A DNA stretch of 64,000 nt from Phycisphaerae bacterium. GTDB lineage: Bacteria; Planctomycetota; Phycisphaerae; UBA1845; Fen-1342. Position numbers and translations under genes: made by a program. Numbering within the stretch: the first letter of the stretch is position 1; each line of letters begins with the position of its first letter. Below are positions 1,062 through 10,292 of this stretch, piece by piece. Where the stretch lies: assembly GCA_050115495.1 (NCBI GenBank), contig JASFQK010000002.1:128001-192000 (forward strand). The letters run 5' to 3'. Below the pieces are notes generated by a model that was given only the letters and a program-made list of their open reading frames with translations, searched no databases and was not told the DNA's origin.

Positions 1062-1568
1062 CTACTTCAGCGGCAGCTCTCCGGTTGCCAGACCGTACAC
1101 CAGCTTGAATGCCCATCCCCCGACCAGTAGGATGATGACCCCCATGCACAGCCGGTATGGTGTCACGATCATCGCCAGCCGCATTGGCCAGCGGTTGGTC
1201 AGCAGCATGTGCAAGCCGGTCAGTGTCGCCGCGATCGTGCCCAGGGCCAGGACAAAACCCGCAGGTTGGGCGAGAAACGCCCGCCAGAGCTGCCCCCGAA
1301 CGACGTAGGCGAACGCGGTGGTCATGCCGCAGGTGGGGCAGGGGTAATGCGTGACGAGCAGCCAGCCGCACGGCGACCCGCTCAATTGCTCGTGCGTGCC
1401 GTAGCCGCGTGGATCAGGTTTCAGCCAGAGGGCCAACCCCAGCACCGCCGCCCCGATCACGAACACCAGCGCGCCGATGGCGCGGGCGGCCCACGTTTTG
1501 GTCGTCTGCTCGACCGGCTCGGCGGCCGGCTCCGTTTCGGGGCTGTCGTCTTCCCGCCTCAACGTCAC
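1062..1568 (-). CDS. DUF2752-like membrane protein
   Basis: PCG...PCPTCGMTTAF motif with about 3 TM helices; GTG start overlaps the stop of the upstream ACT gene. Confidence 0.75.
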   Translation of the reverse strand: MTLRREDDSPETEPAAEPVEQTTKTWAARAIGALVFVIGAAVLGLALWLKPDPRGYGTHEQLSGSPCGWLLVTHYPCPTCGMTTAFAYVVRGQLWRAFLAQPAGFVLALGTIAATLTGLHMLLTNRWPMRLAMIVTPYRLCMGVIILLVGGWAFKLVYGLATGELPLK

Positions 1569-2038
1569 TTTCGCCGTGTTCGGCCGGCGGTGCGGACGCC
1601 GGCGGGCTCCTGCTTGCGCCGCGGTCGCCGCTCCGAGAGAATGCTGATGGCTCGATTCAGGTCAGACACGCGGAAGACACCGAGCGATTTGCCTCGCGGG
1701 GCGCCCGCCGTGCAGTACGCATAGTTGACGTTGACGTGCCCGACGGAGAGCCGCTCGACGACGTCCGCCAGCGCCCCCGGGCGGTTCGGCAACTCGGTCA
1801 CCAGCACCTGCGTTTCGGCCGTGGGTACGTCCAGCGCCCCCAGGCTGGCCCGCGCCTGCGACGCATCCTCGACCACCATACGCAGCACGCCGTGCTCCGT
1901 CGCGTCCATCATGCTCAGGGCGGCGATGTTGACCTTGTCGTCGGCGAGCCGCTGGCACACCCGGGCCAGAATCCCGGGCTTGTTCACCAGGAACACCGAG
2001 AACTGCGTGTCACTCTTCACCCCGTCGGTTTTCGGCAT
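1565..2038 (-). CDS. Tandem ACT-domain protein
   Basis: QFSVFLVNKPGILARV and ELPNRPGALADVVERL...NVNYAY are two ACT repeats; SD AGGAG precedes the ATG at 2038. Confidence 0.85.
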   Translation of the reverse strand: MPKTDGVKSDTQFSVFLVNKPGILARVCQRLADDKVNIAALSMMDATEHGVLRMVVEDASQARASLGALDVPTAETQVLVTELPNRPGALADVVERLSVGHVNVNYAYCTAGAPRGKSLGVFRVSDLNRAISILSERRPRRKQEPAGVRTAGRTRRK

Positions 2039-6249: not shown

Positions 6250-6837
6250 TCAGGGAGCGGGGGCGGACGCCGGCTGGCTCGTCGTGGCGACGTCGGCGAA
6301 GTCGAGGCGGGCCACGCGCCAGTGGTCATCGCTGTCCTTCTGGCATTCGAGGCTGATGACGGCCGGCCCAGCGGGCGACGTCGCCGGTACACGCACGAAC
6401 GCATGCTCGGTGCTGCCGACCGGGGTCACCGTGCTGATGCTGTCCAGCTTAAGGCCGTCGGCGTAGAACCCGATGAGCGGTGCCCAGCCGGAGAGATACG
6501 TTGCCAGGTGCTGCTCGGGGTCCCTCGGCTTGATGTGGAAGGCGTCCTCGTACCGCCGAAGGATTGCGTTACTGGCGACCATCGACCGCAATCGCTTTCG
6601 GCAGAGCTTGACGGCGGCGTCATCGTGGCGGTGCAGGGCGGCCCGCTCGGCCAGCAGGCAGTTGAGCACGCTACGGGCGGCGTCCTGCGGCGTGGCCAGG
6701 TTGATGTCGATCGTCGGCGCGGAGGTGGTCGTCGCCGAGTTGGCTTCGGATTTCCCGCAGGCGGGGATCAGTGGCAGGCCGACGGTGGCCAGGACGACCA
6801 AGCCCAGCGGCAGTATTCGGGCGGAGCGCGCGGTCAT
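6250..6837 (-). CDS. Hypothetical exported protein, probable lipoprotein
   Basis: Hydrophobic N-terminus ending IPAC-GK; in line between metG and mnmE with short spacings. Confidence 0.6.
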   Translation of the reverse strand: MTARSARILPLGLVVLATVGLPLIPACGKSEANSATTTSAPTIDINLATPQDAARSVLNCLLAERAALHRHDDAAVKLCRKRLRSMVASNAILRRYEDAFHIKPRDPEQHLATYLSGWAPLIGFYADGLKLDSISTVTPVGSTEHAFVRVPATSPAGPAVISLECQKDSDDHWRVARLDFADVATTSQPASAPAP

Positions 6838-6853: not shown

Positions 6854-8536
6854 TCATCCCATGCAGCCGGGCTCGAGCTTCTCGAAGAGGATCGCCGGCT
6901 CGGCCAGCGCGTGCCCGGCGGGCAGCGGGGCCGGCACTTCCCAGTGTATCTCGTCGGCGGGCTGCCCGAGCATGCCCAGCAGCCGACGGGCGGCCCCGGG
7001 CATGAACGGGTAGATCATCACGGCCAGGTGTTGCACCGCGTGGATGCAGGTGGCGATGGTGGCAGCGCAAGCCGGCAGATCTTCCTTCCGCGTTCGCCAG
7101 GGCTCTCGGAGACTGAAGTGTTCGTTGCCGAGGCGGGCGTAGCTCATCATCTCTTCGAGGGCGGCCCGGTAGCGGTGCCCCTCGATGTGCGCGCCGACGC
7201 GGGCCAGGGCCTCGCCGCCACGGGCGATATGGGCCCGGTCCTGGTCGGTCTGGGCGTCGGCGGACGGAACGCGGCCTTCGAAGTAGCGGACGGCGAAGGC
7301 CAGCGTGCGGTTGATGAAGTTGCCGAGGGCGGCGACGAGTTCGCTGTTGTTGCGCTGGACGAAATCAGCCGGGTCGAAGGCGGTGCGGGCCGTCTCCGGG
7401 GCGATGGCGGTCAGGTAGTAGCGCAGGGCGTCGGCGTCGAAACGCTTGAGGTACTCCTCGATCCAGACGGGGGAGTCCTCGGGTGTGCGGCTCTTGCTGA
7501 CCTTTTCGTCCTCGCCGCCGAGGCGGAAGTTGACGAAGTTGTTGGCAACGACCGCGTGCGGAAGCTGGTGCCGGCCGTCGGCCATGAGCATCGCCGGCCA
7601 GATCAGGGCGTGAAAGACCGTATTGTCCTCGCCGATGAAGTGCGTGATGTGCGTTTCGGGGTCGCACCACCACTTCTCGTATTCCTGCCAGTTGCCGGCG
7701 GTGTCCTCGCAGAGCTGGGCGGTGAACGAGATGTAGCCGATCGGGGCGTCGAACCAGACGAAGAGCACCTTGCCGGTAGCGTCGGGATCATCGAGCGGGA
7801 CGGGGATGCCCCACGAGATGTCGCGGGTCATGGAGCGCTCGGGCAGTCCCTGCTTGATCTGGCCGAGGGCGAAGTTCAGCACGTGTGGGCGCCACTGGCC
7901 CTGCTTCGATTCGAGCCACTCGCGCAGGGGTTGCTCGAACTTGTGCAGGCTGAGGTGCCAGTGGGTCGTTTCGCGGACGATGGCCGGCACGCCGGTGATC
8001 TGGCTGACCGGTTCGATGAGCAGCAGGGGGTCGATCATCTGCCCGCAGTTGTCGCACTGGTCGCCGGTGGCGCCGGGCGTGCGGCAGTGGTGGCAGGTGC
8101 CGCGGACATAGCGGTCGGGGAGGAAGCGCTCGGCCTGCGGGTCATAGAGCTGCTTGGTGCGGAGCTTGGTGAAGAAGCCCTGCTCGTGGATGCGGCTGAA
8201 GAATTCCTGACTGAACCGCTCGTGCATCTGCTGGTAGCCGGGCTGGTGCGTGCCGCCGTAGACGTCGAACTCGACGCGCAGGCCGGCGAAATCACGAAGC
8301 TGCCGGTCGTGAAATTCGGTGGAGATGTCCTGGGGCTGTCGCTTGGACTTCACGGCGGCGATCTCGATGGCCACGCCGTTGTCATCGCTGCCGCAGATGA
8401 AACGCACCTCGCGGCCACAGGCCCGCAGGTAGCGGACGAAAATGTCGGCCGGCAGGTACGCGCCGGCTATATGGCCGACATGCAGGCGGCCGTTTGAATA
8501 GGGCAATCCCGCCGTTACCAGATATCGACTGGGCAT
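6854..8536 (-). CDS. metG: Methionyl-tRNA synthetase (short form without the C-terminal tRNA-binding domain)
   Basis: LPYSNGRLHVGH (HIGH), CxxC...CxxC zinc knuckle, RDISWGIPVP, VWFDAPIGY and KVSKS (KMSKS). Confidence 0.95.
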   Translation of the reverse strand: MPSRYLVTAGLPYSNGRLHVGHIAGAYLPADIFVRYLRACGREVRFICGSDDNGVAIEIAAVKSKRQPQDISTEFHDRQLRDFAGLRVEFDVYGGTHQPGYQQMHERFSQEFFSRIHEQGFFTKLRTKQLYDPQAERFLPDRYVRGTCHHCRTPGATGDQCDNCGQMIDPLLLIEPVSQITGVPAIVRETTHWHLSLHKFEQPLREWLESKQGQWRPHVLNFALGQIKQGLPERSMTRDISWGIPVPLDDPDATGKVLFVWFDAPIGYISFTAQLCEDTAGNWQEYEKWWCDPETHITHFIGEDNTVFHALIWPAMLMADGRHQLPHAVVANNFVNFRLGGEDEKVSKSRTPEDSPVWIEEYLKRFDADALRYYLTAIAPETARTAFDPADFVQRNNSELVAALGNFINRTLAFAVRYFEGRVPSADAQTDQDRAHIARGGEALARVGAHIEGHRYRAALEEMMSYARLGNEHFSLREPWRTRKEDLPACAATIATCIHAVQHLAVMIYPFMPGAARRLLGMLGQPADEIHWEVPAPLPAGHALAEPAILFEKLEPGCMG

Positions 8537-8640
8537 CGCTCGCCTCACTCCTGGGGAGAAACTGCTGCGCGGATGGTACGCACCGTGGCGGCGGTCTGCA
8601 ATGCGGTCGGACCGCGAGGCCGGTCGGTGTCGTGTGCACC

Positions 8641-8695
8641 AAGAAAAAGGAGCGCGTCAATCCACTACCCGGTGGGGTCGTGGGTTCACGCGCTC
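8641..8695 (-). terminator. Long-stem intrinsic terminator, micropeptide unit 1
   Basis: GAGCGCGT...ACGCGCTC stem followed by CTTTTTCTT on the minus strand. Confidence 0.7.
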
Positions 8696-8752
8696 GGGGC
8701 AGCCGCCGGGAGGCGGCGCCCCCGCGAATTCCGGTTCGCCAGCAGGTGACTG

Positions 8753-8863
8753 CTAGGCGATGAGGTCGGTGCTACCCGACAGGTACCACCAGATGACGAC
8801 GGCGCCAACGGCGATCCAAACCCAGGACCACCATCCGCTGAAGATCGGCAATTCGTTAATCAT
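8753..8863 (-). CDS. Trp-rich transmembrane micropeptide 1 (36 aa, MINELPIFSGWWSWVWIAVGAVVIWWYLSGSTDLIA)
   Basis: SD GGAGG 6 nt before ATG; single hydrophobic helix; paralogous to peptides 2 and 3. Confidence 0.75.
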   Translation of the reverse strand: MINELPIFSGWWSWVWIAVGAVVIWWYLSGSTDLIA

Positions 8864-8977
8864 CACATTCCTCCATTGAATGCGAAGCCACTCGCCCGAG
8901 CCCGCCCACCGCAGGCGGGATCGGCGGCAGCAGGGCTCCGTGCCGCACGCGGCACCACGGTGCATCCTGCGCTAAAC

Positions 8978-9006
8978 ATGGTACGCGACGGGCGACAGCG
9001 CGCCAA
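8978..9006 (-). promoter_or_regulatory. Sigma70-like promoter, unit 1
   Basis: TTGGCG-17 nt-TACCAT followed by GTTTAG. Confidence 0.5.
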
Positions 9007-9033
9007 CGCCGCGGCGGCGGGCGGGGCCGGGTG

Positions 9034-9088
9034 AAGAAAAAAGGCACGCGCCGATTCGCCGTCAGGCGACGGCTGATCGACGCGTACC
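9034..9088 (-). terminator. Long-stem intrinsic terminator, unit 2
   Basis: GGTACGCGTCGAT...ATCGGCGCGTGCC followed by TTTTTTCTT. Confidence 0.7.
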
Positions 9089-9129
9089 GTCGGCGCCGCC
9101 GAAGCGGCGCGATGCTCGTTCGGCTGGCT

Positions 9130-9216
9130 TTACAGGAGGTTCTGCCCGGTGAGCAGGAACCACACCACCACGATGCCGCCGACAACCACGAGCCACCACC
9201 ACCAGTTGCTGAACAT
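9130..9216 (-). CDS. Trp-rich transmembrane micropeptide 2 (28 aa, MFSNWWWWLVVVGGIVVVWFLLTGQNLL)
   Basis: Translated by hand (below the ORF-track cutoff); SD GGGAG 7 nt before ATG; TAA stop. Confidence 0.75.
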   Translation of the reverse strand: MFSNWWWWLVVVGGIVVVWFLLTGQNLL

Positions 9217-9374
9217 CGAAACACTCCCTGCAATCTTGTACCACTCGCCTCGGCCCCCGCCGCGCTGACGGGGTAACACCGAGCCGCGATTCACGATGAG
9301 ATAGAACACCGGACGTGCCGGCGGAGCCGCGAACGACCCACATTCGGGCAGGCCGGCCGCCGATTCGCCAGAAA

Positions 9375-9403
9375 ATATTACCCAACCGGCAAAGAACGTG
9401 CAA
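9375..9403 (-). promoter_or_regulatory. Sigma70-like promoter, unit 2
   Basis: TTGCAC-17 nt-TAATAT. Confidence 0.5.
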
Positions 9404-9454
9404 TGGGTGGAAGGCCGGCAAGGTTACCGCCCGGGGGCGTGCCCCGCGGGGGCC

Positions 9455-9502
9455 AAAAAGGACGCGTCGAGCAATTGCCCACTGGCAGTTGATCGACGCG
9501 TC
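9455..9502 (-). terminator. Long-stem intrinsic terminator, unit 3
   Basis: Perfect 10-bp outer stem GACGCGTCGA/TCGACGCGTC followed by CTTTTT. Confidence 0.75.
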
Positions 9503-9550
9503 GGGTGTTCGCGCCGCAGGAGCGGCGCGACGCCAGGTCAGGATGCGGCA

Positions 9551-9631
9551 CTAGGCAGCGAGCAGCCAGTAGGCCACGAGGAAAATGCCGCCGAAAATCA
9601 ACCACATCCACCAGTTGCCGAAGAAATCCAT
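9551..9631 (-). CDS. Trp-rich transmembrane micropeptide 3 (26 aa, MDFFGNWWMWLIFGGIFLVAYWLLAA)
   Basis: Translated by hand; SD GGAG(AGAG) before ATG; shares F-[SG]-[NG]-W-W-x-W with peptides 1 and 2. Confidence 0.75.
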   Translation of the reverse strand: MDFFGNWWMWLIFGGIFLVAYWLLAA

Positions 9632-9710
9632 GTTCTCTCTCCAAACATGTAACGAACCACTCGCTCCGGTCCCGCCGCGCCGACGGGTCTAACCTCGGCG
9701 ATTACTAAAC

Positions 9711-9739
9711 ACGCTAGTCACGCAGAGCCTCGCCGTCAA
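9711..9739 (-). promoter_or_regulatory. Sigma70-like promoter, unit 3
   Basis: TTGACG-17 nt-TAGCGT followed by GTTTAG (same downstream hexamer as unit 1). Confidence 0.55.
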
Positions 9740-9771
9740 CAGGTCGAGGCCACAAACTGCGCGCGCCTCCC

Positions 9772-9835
9772 AAAAAGAGAGCCCCGTCCGGCGATTAGCG
9801 CCTCCGGCCAATTCGCCGGAGTGTCGAGACGGGGC
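9772..9835 (-). terminator. Long-stem intrinsic terminator, unit 4
   Basis: GCCCCGTC...GACGGGGC stem with an inner CCGGCGA/TCGCCGG stem, followed by TCTCTTTTT. Confidence 0.65.
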
Positions 9836-9924
9836 ACCGTCAAGTGCCACCCGCGCGTTCCGCGGGGGGCTACCTGACGGACCTTGACTGGCGCGACACT
9901 TGTCGTCGCGCTTCGACGGTTGCT

Positions 9925-10005
9925 TTAGAAGAACGCGTTGTACGCCCACACGCCGGTGAACGCCGCGACCGCCGCAACCAAGAAATCAACGAACCAAGTC
10001 CACAT
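9925..10005 (-). CDS. Aromatic-rich transmembrane micropeptide 4 (26 aa, MWTWFVDFLVAAVAAFTGVWAYNAFF)
   Basis: SD AGGAG 7 nt before ATG; same leader hairpin and terminator layout as units 1-3; more divergent sequence. Confidence 0.7.
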   Translation of the reverse strand: MWTWFVDFLVAAVAAFTGVWAYNAFF

Positions 10006-10292
10006 CGTGTCTCTCCTGTGCAGATCTGATTCGTGTCCGTCCTGCCGCGCCGACAGGTCGACCCGGACACAGTTGCTATCATTTACGCTACTTACGAGAA
10101 TGTCGTCAAGGACTGCGCCCCCTTGTTTTTCGTATATTCTGGAGCTTGTTGGACCGCGGTTTGCTACGTCCCGCCGGCAGTCGCGACCCTTTTCTCCCTC
10201 GCGCATCGGCCCGCAGCCGGTCGCCAGGGCCGTTTTGCAGCGCCCGCCGTGCGGCGACCACGTAACCCGCTCCGCCCGCACCGGAGACCCAT

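Follow-up and report, generated by a model that had tools for sequence, protein, structure and literature searches.

Four putative micropeptide genes behind a conserved RNA hairpin between metG and a sugar kinase gene in a Phycisphaerae bacterium

Introduction

What does an apparently empty gap of 1.75 kb between metG and a PfkB-family kinase gene contain? The gap lies in the window, by which we mean the whole stretch of 64,000 nt of a Phycisphaerae genome that was analysed. A sequence-only reading had placed in it four minus-strand transcription units for tiny Trp-rich membrane peptides, and had interpreted these as an undescribed family of either type I toxin-like peptides or small regulators of membrane proteins. 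Outside model bacteria little has been charted of small membrane proteins and of how they are controlled, and we know of almost no characterised RNA regulators in the Planctomycetota. We therefore asked whether the units are genes, what defines them and what they may do.

Layout of the array

Both flanking genes were identified as had been read, with the sugar kinase belonging to the PfkB family. The gap holds four units on the minus strand, and the ATGs at 8863, 9216, 9631 and 10005 agree with the starts given earlier (spacings of 353, 415 and 374 nt). All four are packed in tandem into 1.5 kb of one intergenic region. The neighbouring genes are metG, PfkB kinase, a glycoside hydrolase and MnmE, and the genes adjoining the array encode cytoplasmic enzymes. 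Each unit consists of a 5' hairpin, a GGAG ribosome site, a Trp-rich ORF and a long hairpin with a U-tract. The strong Shine-Dalgarno sequence claimed for every unit is present as a GGAG-type site 6-8 nt 5' of each ATG. The features are as follows, all on the minus strand; ORF coordinates include the stop, and bit scores and E-values are those of the leader model R1.

8978..9006, minus, unit 1 promoter-like hexamers, 17-nt spacer (read from the sequence; fails the strict scan)
8887..8933, minus, unit 1 leader hairpin, diverged from the 46-nt motif (32.5 bits, E 3e-3 for the whole genome)
8870..8874, minus, unit 1 ribosome-binding site (read from the sequence; 6 nt before the ATG)
8753..8863, minus, unit 1 type-A micropeptide ORF, 36 aa (translation; AlphaFold2 helix)
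8640..8695, minus, unit 1 terminator hairpin and U-run (fold z -4.96; inverted repeat I2)
9375..9403, minus, unit 2 promoter-like hexamers, 17-nt spacer (read from the sequence; fails the strict scan)
9240..9287, minus, unit 2 leader hairpin (48.4 bits, E 5e-7)
9224..9228, minus, unit 2 ribosome-binding site (read from the sequence)
9130..9216, minus, unit 2 type-A micropeptide ORF, 28 aa (four Trp codons in a row)
9035..9088, minus, unit 2 terminator hairpin and U-run (fold z -5.00; arms match a module-specific 11-mer)
9711..9739, minus, unit 3 promoter-like hexamers, 17-nt spacer (-35 placed as in relatives)
9656..9701, minus, unit 3 leader hairpin, the best copy in the window (50.7 bits, E 1.4e-7)
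9639..9642, minus, unit 3 ribosome-binding site (read from the sequence; in a predicted hairpin loop)
9551..9631, minus, unit 3 type-A micropeptide ORF, 26 aa (translation)
9455..9502, minus, unit 3 terminator hairpin and U-run (fold z -5.62; inverted repeat I4)
10080..10109, minus, unit 4 promoter-like hexamers, 18-nt spacer (-35 placed as in relatives)
10026..10072, minus, unit 4 leader hairpin, stem altered by compensatory substitutions (40.1 bits, E 4.9e-5)
10013..10016, minus, unit 4 ribosome-binding site (read from the sequence)
9925..10005, minus, unit 4 second-type micropeptide ORF, 26 aa (translation)
9771..9880, minus, unit 4 two long 3' hairpins, U-run after the last (fold z -6.08)

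The peptides

The four ORFs encode Trp-rich peptides of 26-36 aa that end in polar uncharged or aromatic residues. Their translations match the earlier ones, including the complete absence of Lys and Arg. We compared them with all ATG-ORFs of 24-40 aa in the 5.97-Mb genome, read in all six frames. A Trp content of at least 11%, absence of Lys and Arg and at least 60% hydrophobic residues, a combination chosen post hoc after the peptides had been seen, are found together in 4 of 17,980 ORFs, and these are exactly the four ORFs of the array. Their hydrophobic windows score 1.87-2.77, in keeping with small proteins that have a predicted transmembrane helix. For the unit 1 peptide AlphaFold2 predicted a single helix at residues 10-29 (mean pLDDT 81.5), and the peptide stops 7 residues past it. 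A prediction of a four-copy complex, run without controls, gave a score of 0.02 and is an argument neither for nor against self-binding.

Judged by their sequences the four copies are probably diverged paralogues, with three peptides of type A (units 1-3) and one of a second type (unit 4). Homologues of the second type lie at L013:2254-2337 and L177:612-698. The earlier reading had missed that unit 4 is a separate peptide type with homologues of its own.

Within each peptide type the protein sequence is kept across genera while the DNA has diverged. That the protein is kept in this way had been claimed, and the close type-A pairs bear it out: across five pairs (144 codons) we counted 13 synonymous compared to 4 non-synonymous codon changes. 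The ORF length stays within one codon in 9 of 9 close pairs. The coding signal fades with greater divergence. The comparison of dN/dS among homologues that had been suggested as a check gave a synonymous excess for the close type-A pairs. When 153 pairs are pooled, the uncorrected pN/pS is 0.56; the synonymous sites are saturated, and this saturation is the reason why long-range dN/dS is weak. In the distant comparison the variable sites are spread over the codon positions as 17/15/17, i.e. with no third-position excess. One inter-genus pair shows 4 synonymous and 11 non-synonymous changes, and for pairs of types B and C the numbers are 9 and 19.

Searches of Pfam and NCBIfam returned nothing at or above the cut-off for the peptides, and no described toxin family was among the matches. 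The look-alikes in the ESM Atlas (best score 0.78) were unnamed clusters that gave no lead, and only 13 related clusters were found among 1.84 billion proteins. Full-text searches of the literature brought up no paper that describes peptides or a motif of this kind in Planctomycetes or Phycisphaerae. An undescribed family had been proposed, and with no match in Pfam, NCBIfam or Rfam that part of the interpretation holds: the micropeptides appear to be a real, unnamed and lineage-restricted family.

The RNA leader

A leader hairpin had been read in front of every ORF; it is real and homologous in all four units. The leader is a 46-nt hairpin of two stems followed by a conserved purine-rich tail. 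The outer stem has 9 bp, the internal loop is asymmetric (5-6 nt) and the inner stem consists of 7 G/C base pairs closed by a 3-nt loop. Across 20 leaders 82.4% of the cells are paired and 10 pairs show double changes, which was matched by 0 of 500 shuffles. For 42 distinct hits, in a leader alignment (A7) that is fitted to the model, 89.4% of the cells are paired and 13 of 16 pairs are compensatory (again 0 of 500 shuffles), compared to 33-58% paired in the slid controls. One pair position is occupied by U-G in 25 cases and by C-G in 17, and the U-G pairs point to an RNA of the sense strand. The predicted free energies of the leaders are no better than those of shuffles (z -0.99 to +0.58), so the structural support comes from the covariation.

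Not only the pairing is conserved. The sequence of the inner stem, the loop and the 3' tail is nearly invariant over at least 20 genera. In 7 of 9 close pairs the upstream 70 nt contain 0-4 differences and the ORFs of the same seven pairs 0-12, and thus the leader is at least as conserved as the ORF. The sequence-only reading had not remarked that the RNA leader is the most conserved part of the units.

The search of Rfam 15 gave five matches with E<=10. All of them were far below the gathering threshold (best 21.3 bits compared to 90) and none coincides with the hairpin motif. Searching the own genome with R1 returned only the four units below E 0.01. The sole other match in the genome, on contig C18 (E 0.013), is antisense within a long ORF and was discarded as spurious.

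The conserved hairpin leaves the ribosome site unsequestered in predicted folds: in 3 of 6 the site was read as lying in a loop, either hairpin or internal, and in the others it was partly paired. We also considered a hok-like pairing of the 5' and 3' ends, as the leaders of the window are 71-81% complementary to a small hairpin in the 3' UTR (I1, I3, I5). This small hairpin differs in sequence in other genomes and the complementarity is therefore probably a chance effect of G/C-rich sequence.

Distribution in relatives

Homologues of the small ORFs were found only within a single family of uncultured Phycisphaerae. They are present in 6 of 6 genomes from the same genus as well as in other genera of the family, and stand in tandem sets of 1-4. 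The leader motif occurs in 34 of 71 sister genomes of this family; a sample of 150 other genomes from across the class contained it in 0 cases. For 21 of the 22 hits that lay outside the model building, a small hydrophobic ORF with GGAG and ATG follows 19-25 nt downstream. This spacing is not a multiple of three and hence the leader is not a coding extension. The ORFs in relatives range from 26 to 54 codons.

The ORF behind the leader is often of unrelated sequence in relatives, and unrelated hydrophobic ORFs fill even the same slot upstream of metG. It contains only 0-2 Trp in 11 of 34 leader-bearing modules, and in some relatives it ends in clusters of aromatic and basic residues. The terminator arms are conserved as well in 9 of the 34. 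As one hairpin precedes quite different small membrane peptides, we infer that the module is defined by the conserved RNA signal rather than by the peptide.

This pattern raises the possibility that the RNA itself is what matters, with the transcript as product (for example a dual-function small RNA or a sponge) or with translation of any hydrophobic ORF serving an RNA purpose, in which case the sequence of the peptide would be of little importance. Leader and, in 9 of 34 modules, terminator arms are kept while the ORF between them is swapped for unrelated hydrophobic sequence, and the constraint in the type B/C pairs is weak, both of which would be expected. However, the conservation across genera within each peptide type and the synonymous excess in the close type-A pairs speak for a protein product. 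ATG, ribosome site and hydrophobic helix are retained in 33 of 34 modules; a best 15-residue hydrophobicity window of at least 1.8 is reached by 33 of 34 modules compared to 760 of 28,442 (2.7%) random small ORFs of this genome. A genome search with the leaders also revealed no target complementarity. We consider an RNA-centred module quite improbable.

A variable payload beneath conserved expression signals, in multiple, diversified, tandem copies with Trp-rich motifs, is also what leaderless bacteriocins or precursors of Trp-crosslinked RiPPs might look like. The genes nearby (metG, PfkB kinase, glycoside hydrolase, MnmE) include no modifying enzyme, transporter or immunity gene. The peptides of the array are uncharged and form a predicted membrane-spanning helix, which sets them apart from soluble cationic bacteriocins, and we regard exported or modified peptides as very improbable.

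Promoters, terminators and transcripts

The promoters had been described as sigma-70-like. The hexamer pairs exist as written, with spacers of 17, 17, 17 and 18 nt, but a strict sigma-70 scan of both strands found 0 promoters and thus none of the four passes. The -35 hexamer of units 3 and 4 is placed as it is in relatives. The proposed promoters of units 1 and 2, set 45-95 nt farther from the hairpin, are less certain: they lie ∼45 nt upstream of the hairpin in unit 1, farther than in relatives, and ∼90 nt upstream in unit 2, and in neither unit was the conserved -35 hexamer found near the hairpin. By our reading, a TTGAC-type hexamer is present no more than 45 nt upstream in 30 of 36 modules, and the -10-like box of the modules ends 9-13 nt before the hairpin.

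Failure in the strict scan would be expected of chance ORFs in a G+C-rich spacer without any function, and spurious ORFs are abundant in high-GC genomes. This explanation is barely credible, as it is already contradicted by the conservation of the peptides in other genera with diverged DNA, by the covariation of the leader and by peptide properties that are unique in the genome.

The long-stem terminators of the earlier reading could be verified. At the end of each 3' UTR stands a long stem with a U-run behind it, and the folds are far more stable than shuffles (z -4.96, -5.00, -5.62 and -6.08 for units 1 to 4; 0 of 200 shuffles as stable). A simple terminator scan missed these hairpins; its 3 hits, compared to 2.3 expected, were all elsewhere. 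In modules with recognisable arms the terminator stem begins 38-60 nt past the stop, and the Trp codons lie ∼60 nt ahead of the stop and ∼100 nt before the stem.

These distances bear on the question of whether the ORFs are Trp-sensing leader peptides, i.e. attenuators that govern read-through into the next unit or into metG. Up to four tandem Trp codons precede a terminator, and in 17 of the 29 other motif-bearing genomes examined the module precedes metG on the same strand. But ∼100 nt is too far from the stem for refolding controlled by the ribosome, the Trp codons are not conserved (0-2 Trp in 11 of 34 modules) and metG has its own conserved promoter-like box. In addition, the fetched flank contains other genes, or lacks metG, in twelve motif-bearing genomes. 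An attenuator is accordingly extremely unlikely.

Contigs from an RNA library match positions 9195-9353 and 9531-9986 with zero differences, and the second of these stretches includes the whole unit 3 ORF. They stem from a single metatranscriptome that is kept as contigs, is strandless and may contain DNA. Unit 1, the leader of unit 4 and some stretches of the flanks have no contig cover, which says nothing either way. One contig joins the ORF of unit 4, through the terminator of that unit, to unit 3; it fits read-through or DNA and not four sealed units.

Comparison with known systems

Could the array be a set of loci of the type I toxin-antitoxin kind? The peptides would then damage the membrane, and the leader would owe its conservation to being targeted by an antitoxin RNA, be it cis-antisense or a single trans-acting RNA shared by all copies. 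The mRNAs of known toxins are translationally locked. Here the promoter is near the consensus and, in the predicted folds, the conserved hairpin leaves the ribosome site free. The antisense strand contains 0 promoter-like sites in the scan of both strands, and the complement of the hairpin is not followed by a U-run. Complementarity to the leader across the genome was limited to short G/C-rich 14-28-mers (best E 0.02). Sequence scans thus found no antisense or complementary RNA. Also unlike in type I loci, one leader serves unrelated peptides, no known toxin family was matched, and type A lacks any Lys or Arg and has no charged C-terminus.

The likeness lies in the architecture. According to the main text of Fozo et al. 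2010 (PMC2887945), the E. coli loci ldr/rdl, ibs/sib and zorO/orzO have several copies per intergenic region that encode hydrophobic single-helix peptides of <70 aa, and they show similarity in the UTRs, are restricted to a lineage and are missed by gene callers. The array resembles them in all these respects, and small hydrophobic single-helix peptides, tandem arrangement in one intergenic region and similarity beyond the ORF are the traits used as search criteria there (PMC2887945). A further criterion in that text is a C-terminus rich in polar, charged or bulky residues (PMC2887945), and several leader-bearing relatives do end in bulky aromatic and charged clusters. A double constraint exerted by an RNA partner could account for a leader that is more conserved than the ORF, and two modules adjoin a HerA-like ATPase gene instead of metG. 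On balance we consider a type I toxin-antitoxin-like system unlikely. The interpretation of the sequence-only reading is partly supported in that the undescribed family stands, whereas its choice between type I toxin and regulator of membrane proteins does not share that support.

The B. subtilis YhzE family is instructive here: its members were proposed as toxins on architecture alone and overproduction was not clearly toxic, as far as the main text reports (PMC2887945). Like the array these are tiny, tandem-duplicated membrane proteins with Gly- and aromatic-rich ends, but they belong to another phylum and have no sequence match to it. For YhzE an antisense RNA was sought experimentally (PMC2887945), for the array by sequence scans. 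The main text of Fozo et al. 2010 (PMC2887945) does not mention Planctomycetes.

The array also invites comparison with small subunits of membrane complexes. KdpF, AcrZ and CydX have 25-50 aa and one helix, act by helix-helix packing on larger complexes and are usually encoded in or beside the operon of their partner. The array shares the single helix and the length of at most 50 aa, but its units appear monocistronic and lie between metG and the sugar kinase gene, not at cydAB. CydX (YbgT_YccB, PF08173) was rejected as a relative: it had no match in the array, and its two hits (E>2) were long frames on other contigs. One member of the family is labelled TatA in JGI/IMG. TatA/E (PF02416) has a similar short N-terminal hydrophobic helix followed by Gly. 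However, the array peptides end a few residues past the membrane helix and therefore lack the amphipathic helix after the hinge, the hhalign probability was 11.6% over 16 columns, and a whole-genome search at E<=1 detected only the genuine TatA on contig 15 (C15:69178-69321).

Proposed function

The explanation that we prefer, with about even confidence, is that the units are separate monocistronic genes, each for one small integral membrane protein, and belong to a lineage-specific module that is defined by its RNA signals. A sigma-70-type promoter would fire 9-13 nt upstream of the hairpin, which would place the hairpin at the extreme 5' end of the mRNA. There it may shield the transcript from decay that depends on the 5' end. 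The ompA 5' UTR is a 5'-terminal stem-loop that stabilises its mRNA, and the leader is similar to it as a stable hairpin a few nt from the predicted 5' end of a presumably strongly expressed mRNA. It differs from stabilisers of the ompA type by the near-invariant inner stem, loop and 3' tail, and no Rfam family covers it. A role as stabiliser alone leaves the near-invariant sequence of inner stem and tail unexplained, and this sequence suggests specific recognition beyond simple end protection. As the sequence and not only the pairing is conserved, the leader probably also binds a trans-acting factor of the lineage, which might set stability or translation.

Ribosomes would load at the site that the conserved hairpin leaves free. 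At this length the peptide would be released while still inside the ribosome tunnel and would thus be inserted post-translationally, with its N-terminal Trp cluster placed at the membrane interface and a Gly-Gly face open to helix-helix packing with itself or with a larger membrane protein. The predicted exposure of the ribosome site and the near-consensus promoter would fit constitutive expression better than a silenced toxin. Under the preferred explanation the peptides would most likely serve as membrane components or modulators, abundant and non-lethal, and not as silenced toxins.

More tentatively, the selected entity may be the RNA, in the form of a 5'-terminal 'label' cassette into which unrelated single-helix peptides are slotted, and a dedicated trans-acting protein or RNA of this lineage would read the label. 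The cassette would comprise the 46-nt hairpin and the purine-rich tail with their own promoter and often a sequence-conserved terminator. Its reader would control the whole repertoire of membrane micropeptides, whether toxin-like or modulatory. We see this as possible rather than probable.

Significance

The locus offers a testable pair, an unannotated micropeptide family and a new structured 5' RNA motif. If the peptides were toxic, they would form the first known type I-like system in the phylum, as our literature search found none in the Planctomycetota. If the label reading were true, both the class of cis-regulatory RNA and the type of post-transcriptional regulon would be new. If a factor binds the motif, a lineage-specific regulon would be exposed, and the leader motif can be used to find micropeptide genes that are hidden from gene callers.

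Layout of the array

The sequence-only reading had placed four units, each with a leader hairpin, an SD sequence, a tiny ORF and a U-tract terminator, between metG and the neighbouring kinase gene. On aligning the four units we saw the same architecture, and the ORF translations obtained here are identical to the four peptides it had given. The minus strand of the metG-kinase gap spans 1.75 kb without any long gene. The features are:

6857-8536, minus strand: metG, class I Met-tRNA synthetase domains (E 4e-131)
8573-8601, minus strand: metG promoter-like pair TTGCAG, 17-nt spacer, TACCAT, between the last terminator and metG
8863, minus strand: start of the unit 1 small ORF, 36 codons
9216, minus strand: start of the unit 2 small ORF, 28 codons
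9631, minus strand: start of the unit 3 small ORF, 26 codons
10005, minus strand: start of the unit 4 small ORF, 26 codons
10293-11204, divergent: PfkB-family kinase gene (domain search)

The alignment of units 1-4 displays a common plan: a G/C-rich leader hairpin, a GGAG-type ribosome site 6-8 nt 5' of the ATG, the ORF, a small 3' hairpin and a long hairpin with a U-run. For the folds of the four 3' UTRs we computed z = -4.96, -5.00, -5.62 and -6.08, and none of 200 shuffles was as stable. A simple consensus terminator scan returned 3 sites, all outside the units' hairpins, compared to 2.3 expected. Beyond metG, towards mnmE, lies a 195-aa ORF (6253-6837, minus strand) with a lipoprotein-like N-terminus and no Pfam match.

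The six frames of the 5.97-Mb assembly contain 17,980 ATG-ORFs of 24-40 aa, 279 of them with at least 11% Trp. Only 4 of the 17,980 combine this Trp content with the absence of Lys and Arg and at least 60% hydrophobic residues, namely units 1-4, all inside 1.2 kb and each with a ribosome site; these criteria were chosen post hoc from the peptides and thus show uniqueness but give no formal probability.

The leader hairpin

Comparison across genomes shows the leader to be a structured RNA that is conserved and that unifies the modules (leader, small ORF and terminator). We aligned 20 leaders of ~46 nt from 11 genomes. They share a 9-bp outer stem, a 5-6-nt asymmetric internal loop, a 7-bp inner stem with a 3-nt loop and a conserved purine-rich tail. 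In this alignment 82.4% of the cells were paired and both sides had changed in 10 of the 16 pairs; 0 of 500 column shuffles reached the observed values, and with slid partners the pairing fell to 35-58%. As U-G pairs are frequent, the structure belongs to the sense-strand RNA. Thermodynamic folding of the leaders was not distinctive against shuffles (z from -0.99 to +0.58), and the inner hairpin was present in all six minimum-energy folds. Rfam gave no match to the leader.

From the 20-leader alignment we built a covariance model, R1. In the window's own genome only units 1-4 scored below E 0.01; a fifth match (E 0.013) falls within a long ORF on the opposite strand and was rejected. Of the 71 further genomes in the family, 34 were matched by the model (22 of 40 genera when the window's genome is included), whereas 150 other genomes sampled across the class yielded none at E ≤ 0.001. 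The 42 distinct matches showed 89.4% pairing and compensatory changes in 13 of 16 pairs, not equalled in 500 shuffles, though their alignment was fitted to R1 and is therefore biased towards the structure.

Two further observations concern hairpins. In two genomes of the same genus (L041 and L042, ~1250-1900, plus strand) a variant array carries four small hydrophobic ORFs behind differing leader hairpins that R1 does not detect. Here the next ribosome site follows immediately on a hairpin with a U-run, an arrangement more suggestive of an operon with internal attenuator-like hairpins than of separate promoters. In the window, the leader hairpins at 9661-9686 and 10031-10054 are 71-81% complementary to the small 3'-UTR hairpin of unit 2 (9087-9112). 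The sequence of the small 3' hairpin differs in other genomes, so this complementarity is probably due to chance in G/C-rich sequence.

What the leader precedes

For 21 of the 22 matches outside the set used to build R1 we found a GGAG-ATG ORF of 26-54 codons located 19-25 nt 3' of the motif. As the distance between leader and ATG differs among modules without keeping to multiples of three, the leader does not code for an N-terminal extension of the peptide. The encoded peptides vary: some are of type A, the Trp-rich kind of units 1-3, some combine a polar N-terminus with a Gly-rich helix and an aromatic/basic/acidic C-terminus, and others are different again. The best 15-residue hydrophobicity window reached at least 1.8 in 33 of 34 modules compared to 2.7% of random small ORFs from this genome. 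Trp attenuation was rejected: the distance from the Trp codons to the terminator is too great, and just 0-2 Trp occur in 11 of the 34 modules that share this leader. At the relatives' loci L072, L084, L095, L077, L085-L088 and L074/L093 the same leader is followed by peptides of types other than A, 36-54 aa long, again with a polar N-terminus and a Gly-rich helix. Their C-terminus has an aromatic and basic cluster and an acidic end, and in two genomes such a peptide fills the slot directly upstream of metG.

The terminators are also shared in part. In 9 of 34 modules, spanning different peptide types and genera, the stem has identical 11-nt arms placed equally far from the stop (75 of 5000 control draws passed, these being taken from the same loci and possibly overlapping modules). 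In the window's genome the long terminator palindrome is confined to units 2 and 3.

In 7 of 9 close pairs we counted 0-4 differences in the 70 nt preceding the ATG, and in 6 of those 7 no more than in the ORF, so conservation of the RNA signal equals or exceeds that of the protein. Stronger conservation of the leader than of the ORF would suit an RNA partner, as would be expected of a type I toxin, and both the architecture and the peptide character fit published search criteria for such toxins (PMC2887945, the main text of which makes no mention of Planctomycetes). However, we found no antisense promoter or terminator at the units and no complementary locus in the genome, and we regard a type I toxin array as unlikely.

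The peptide family

Judged from sequence comparisons, the micropeptides are a real, narrow family without a name. The proposal that the family is undescribed is borne out by Pfam and NCBIfam, where nothing was found at or near the cut-off. With a peptide profile we detected like small ORFs, 2-4 in tandem, in each of the six remaining genomes of the genus, and also in further genera of the family. When 279 genomes of the order were searched at E ≤ 0.01, 21 gave a match, including the window's own. Within the family 14 of 71 matched, two of them in frames of 602 and 110 aa that are not small ORFs. Another 6 matches come from beyond the family; every one falls in a frame of 132-280 aa, and we consider them spurious. 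A HMMER search of 1.84 billion representative proteins gave 14 matches at E ≤ 0.001. One is an unrelated 387-aa repeat protein, and the other 13 are proteins of 29-67 aa in which the Trp-Trp-x-Trp and Gly-Gly helix pattern recurs. Of these 13 clusters we looked up 10, which have 1-2 members each, most without a name, three called 'hypothetical protein' and one labelled TatA. The latter, the 36-aa P0005, carries the JGI/IMG label 'Sec-independent protein translocase protein TatA', which is likely a mis-annotation: the TatA profile picks only the genuine TatA on another contig, and the profile-profile probability is 11.6%. A CydX profile did not match the peptides either. We found no paper on such peptides or such a motif in Planctomycetes or Phycisphaerae.

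AlphaFold2 on the family alignment predicted a single helix across residues 10-29 (mean pLDDT 81.5). Unit 4 encodes a second peptide type. One genome has a homologue of it next to the array, and another genome of the genus has one at a separate locus (L177:612-698, plus strand). At this separate locus the hairpin sequence of the unit-4-type homologue differs, the purine-rich box before the ribosome site is the same and the gene has its own terminator. At L038 (~1501-1578, minus strand) the middle of an ORF in a ~110-aa frame resembles the type-A helix and has polar extensions on its N- and C-terminal sides; this ORF may represent a longer form, either fused or ancestral.

The earlier view that the protein is kept while the DNA diverges is supported by close type-A pairs: five of them showed 13 synonymous and 4 non-synonymous codon changes over 144 codons, whereas one inter-genus pair showed 4 and 11. 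For three pairs of other peptide types we counted 9 and 19, and ORF length was kept within one codon in all nine pairs compared. Over the 20-codon core of 18 sequences (153 pairs, uncorrected) pS was 0.63, which is saturated, and pN 0.35, with no third-position excess. The coding signal weakens with distance.

Promoters, context and transcripts

The promoter hexamers proposed from the sequence are present as written but weak by E. coli consensus, and a simple consensus scan returned no promoter-like sites, leaving the units' signals undetected. By inspection, 30 of 36 modules have a TTGAC-type hexamer no more than 45 nt upstream of the motif, followed after 17 nt by an A-rich -10-like box, the end of which is 9-13 nt upstream of the outer stem. 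With a transcription start at the usual spacing, the mRNA would have the hairpin at its very 5' end. This arrangement is seen in units 3 and 4; units 1 and 2 contain an additional 45-95 nt and lack a TTGAC-type hexamer nearby.

In 17 of 29 other motif-bearing genomes the fetched flank includes metG, downstream of a module and co-oriented with it, and the motif is upstream of metG in 12 of 80 metG loci of public MAG records, which mostly overlap those genomes, so that the counts are not independent. Elsewhere a module adjoins a HerA-like ATPase gene, a prepilin-type gene or a Lon-domain gene. The -10-like box of metG and its following bases recur upstream of metG in at least 4 other genera, and metG thus seems to have its own conserved promoter. 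Given this box and the other neighbours, the module is a stand-alone element and not a metG leader.

The contigs of one metatranscriptome include pieces identical to 9195-9353, 9531-9986 and parts of metG and the kinase gene; they are strandless and indicate presence in an RNA library that may contain DNA. The 456-nt contig (9531-9986) runs from inside the unit 4 ORF over its terminator and the unit 3 promoter to just past the unit 3 stop, and reflects either read-through transcription or library DNA carry-over.

In our interpretation the array consists of four paralogous genes, each transcribed independently and each encoding a small single-pass membrane protein. Their mRNAs would begin with a conserved hairpin protecting the 5' end, and this hairpin probably binds a lineage-specific factor, as its inner stem and tail are near-invariant. 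The ribosome site, which the conserved hairpin leaves free, the near-consensus -35 hexamer and the stabilising structures at both ends point to an output that would be high and constitutive, and such an output argues against a silenced toxin.
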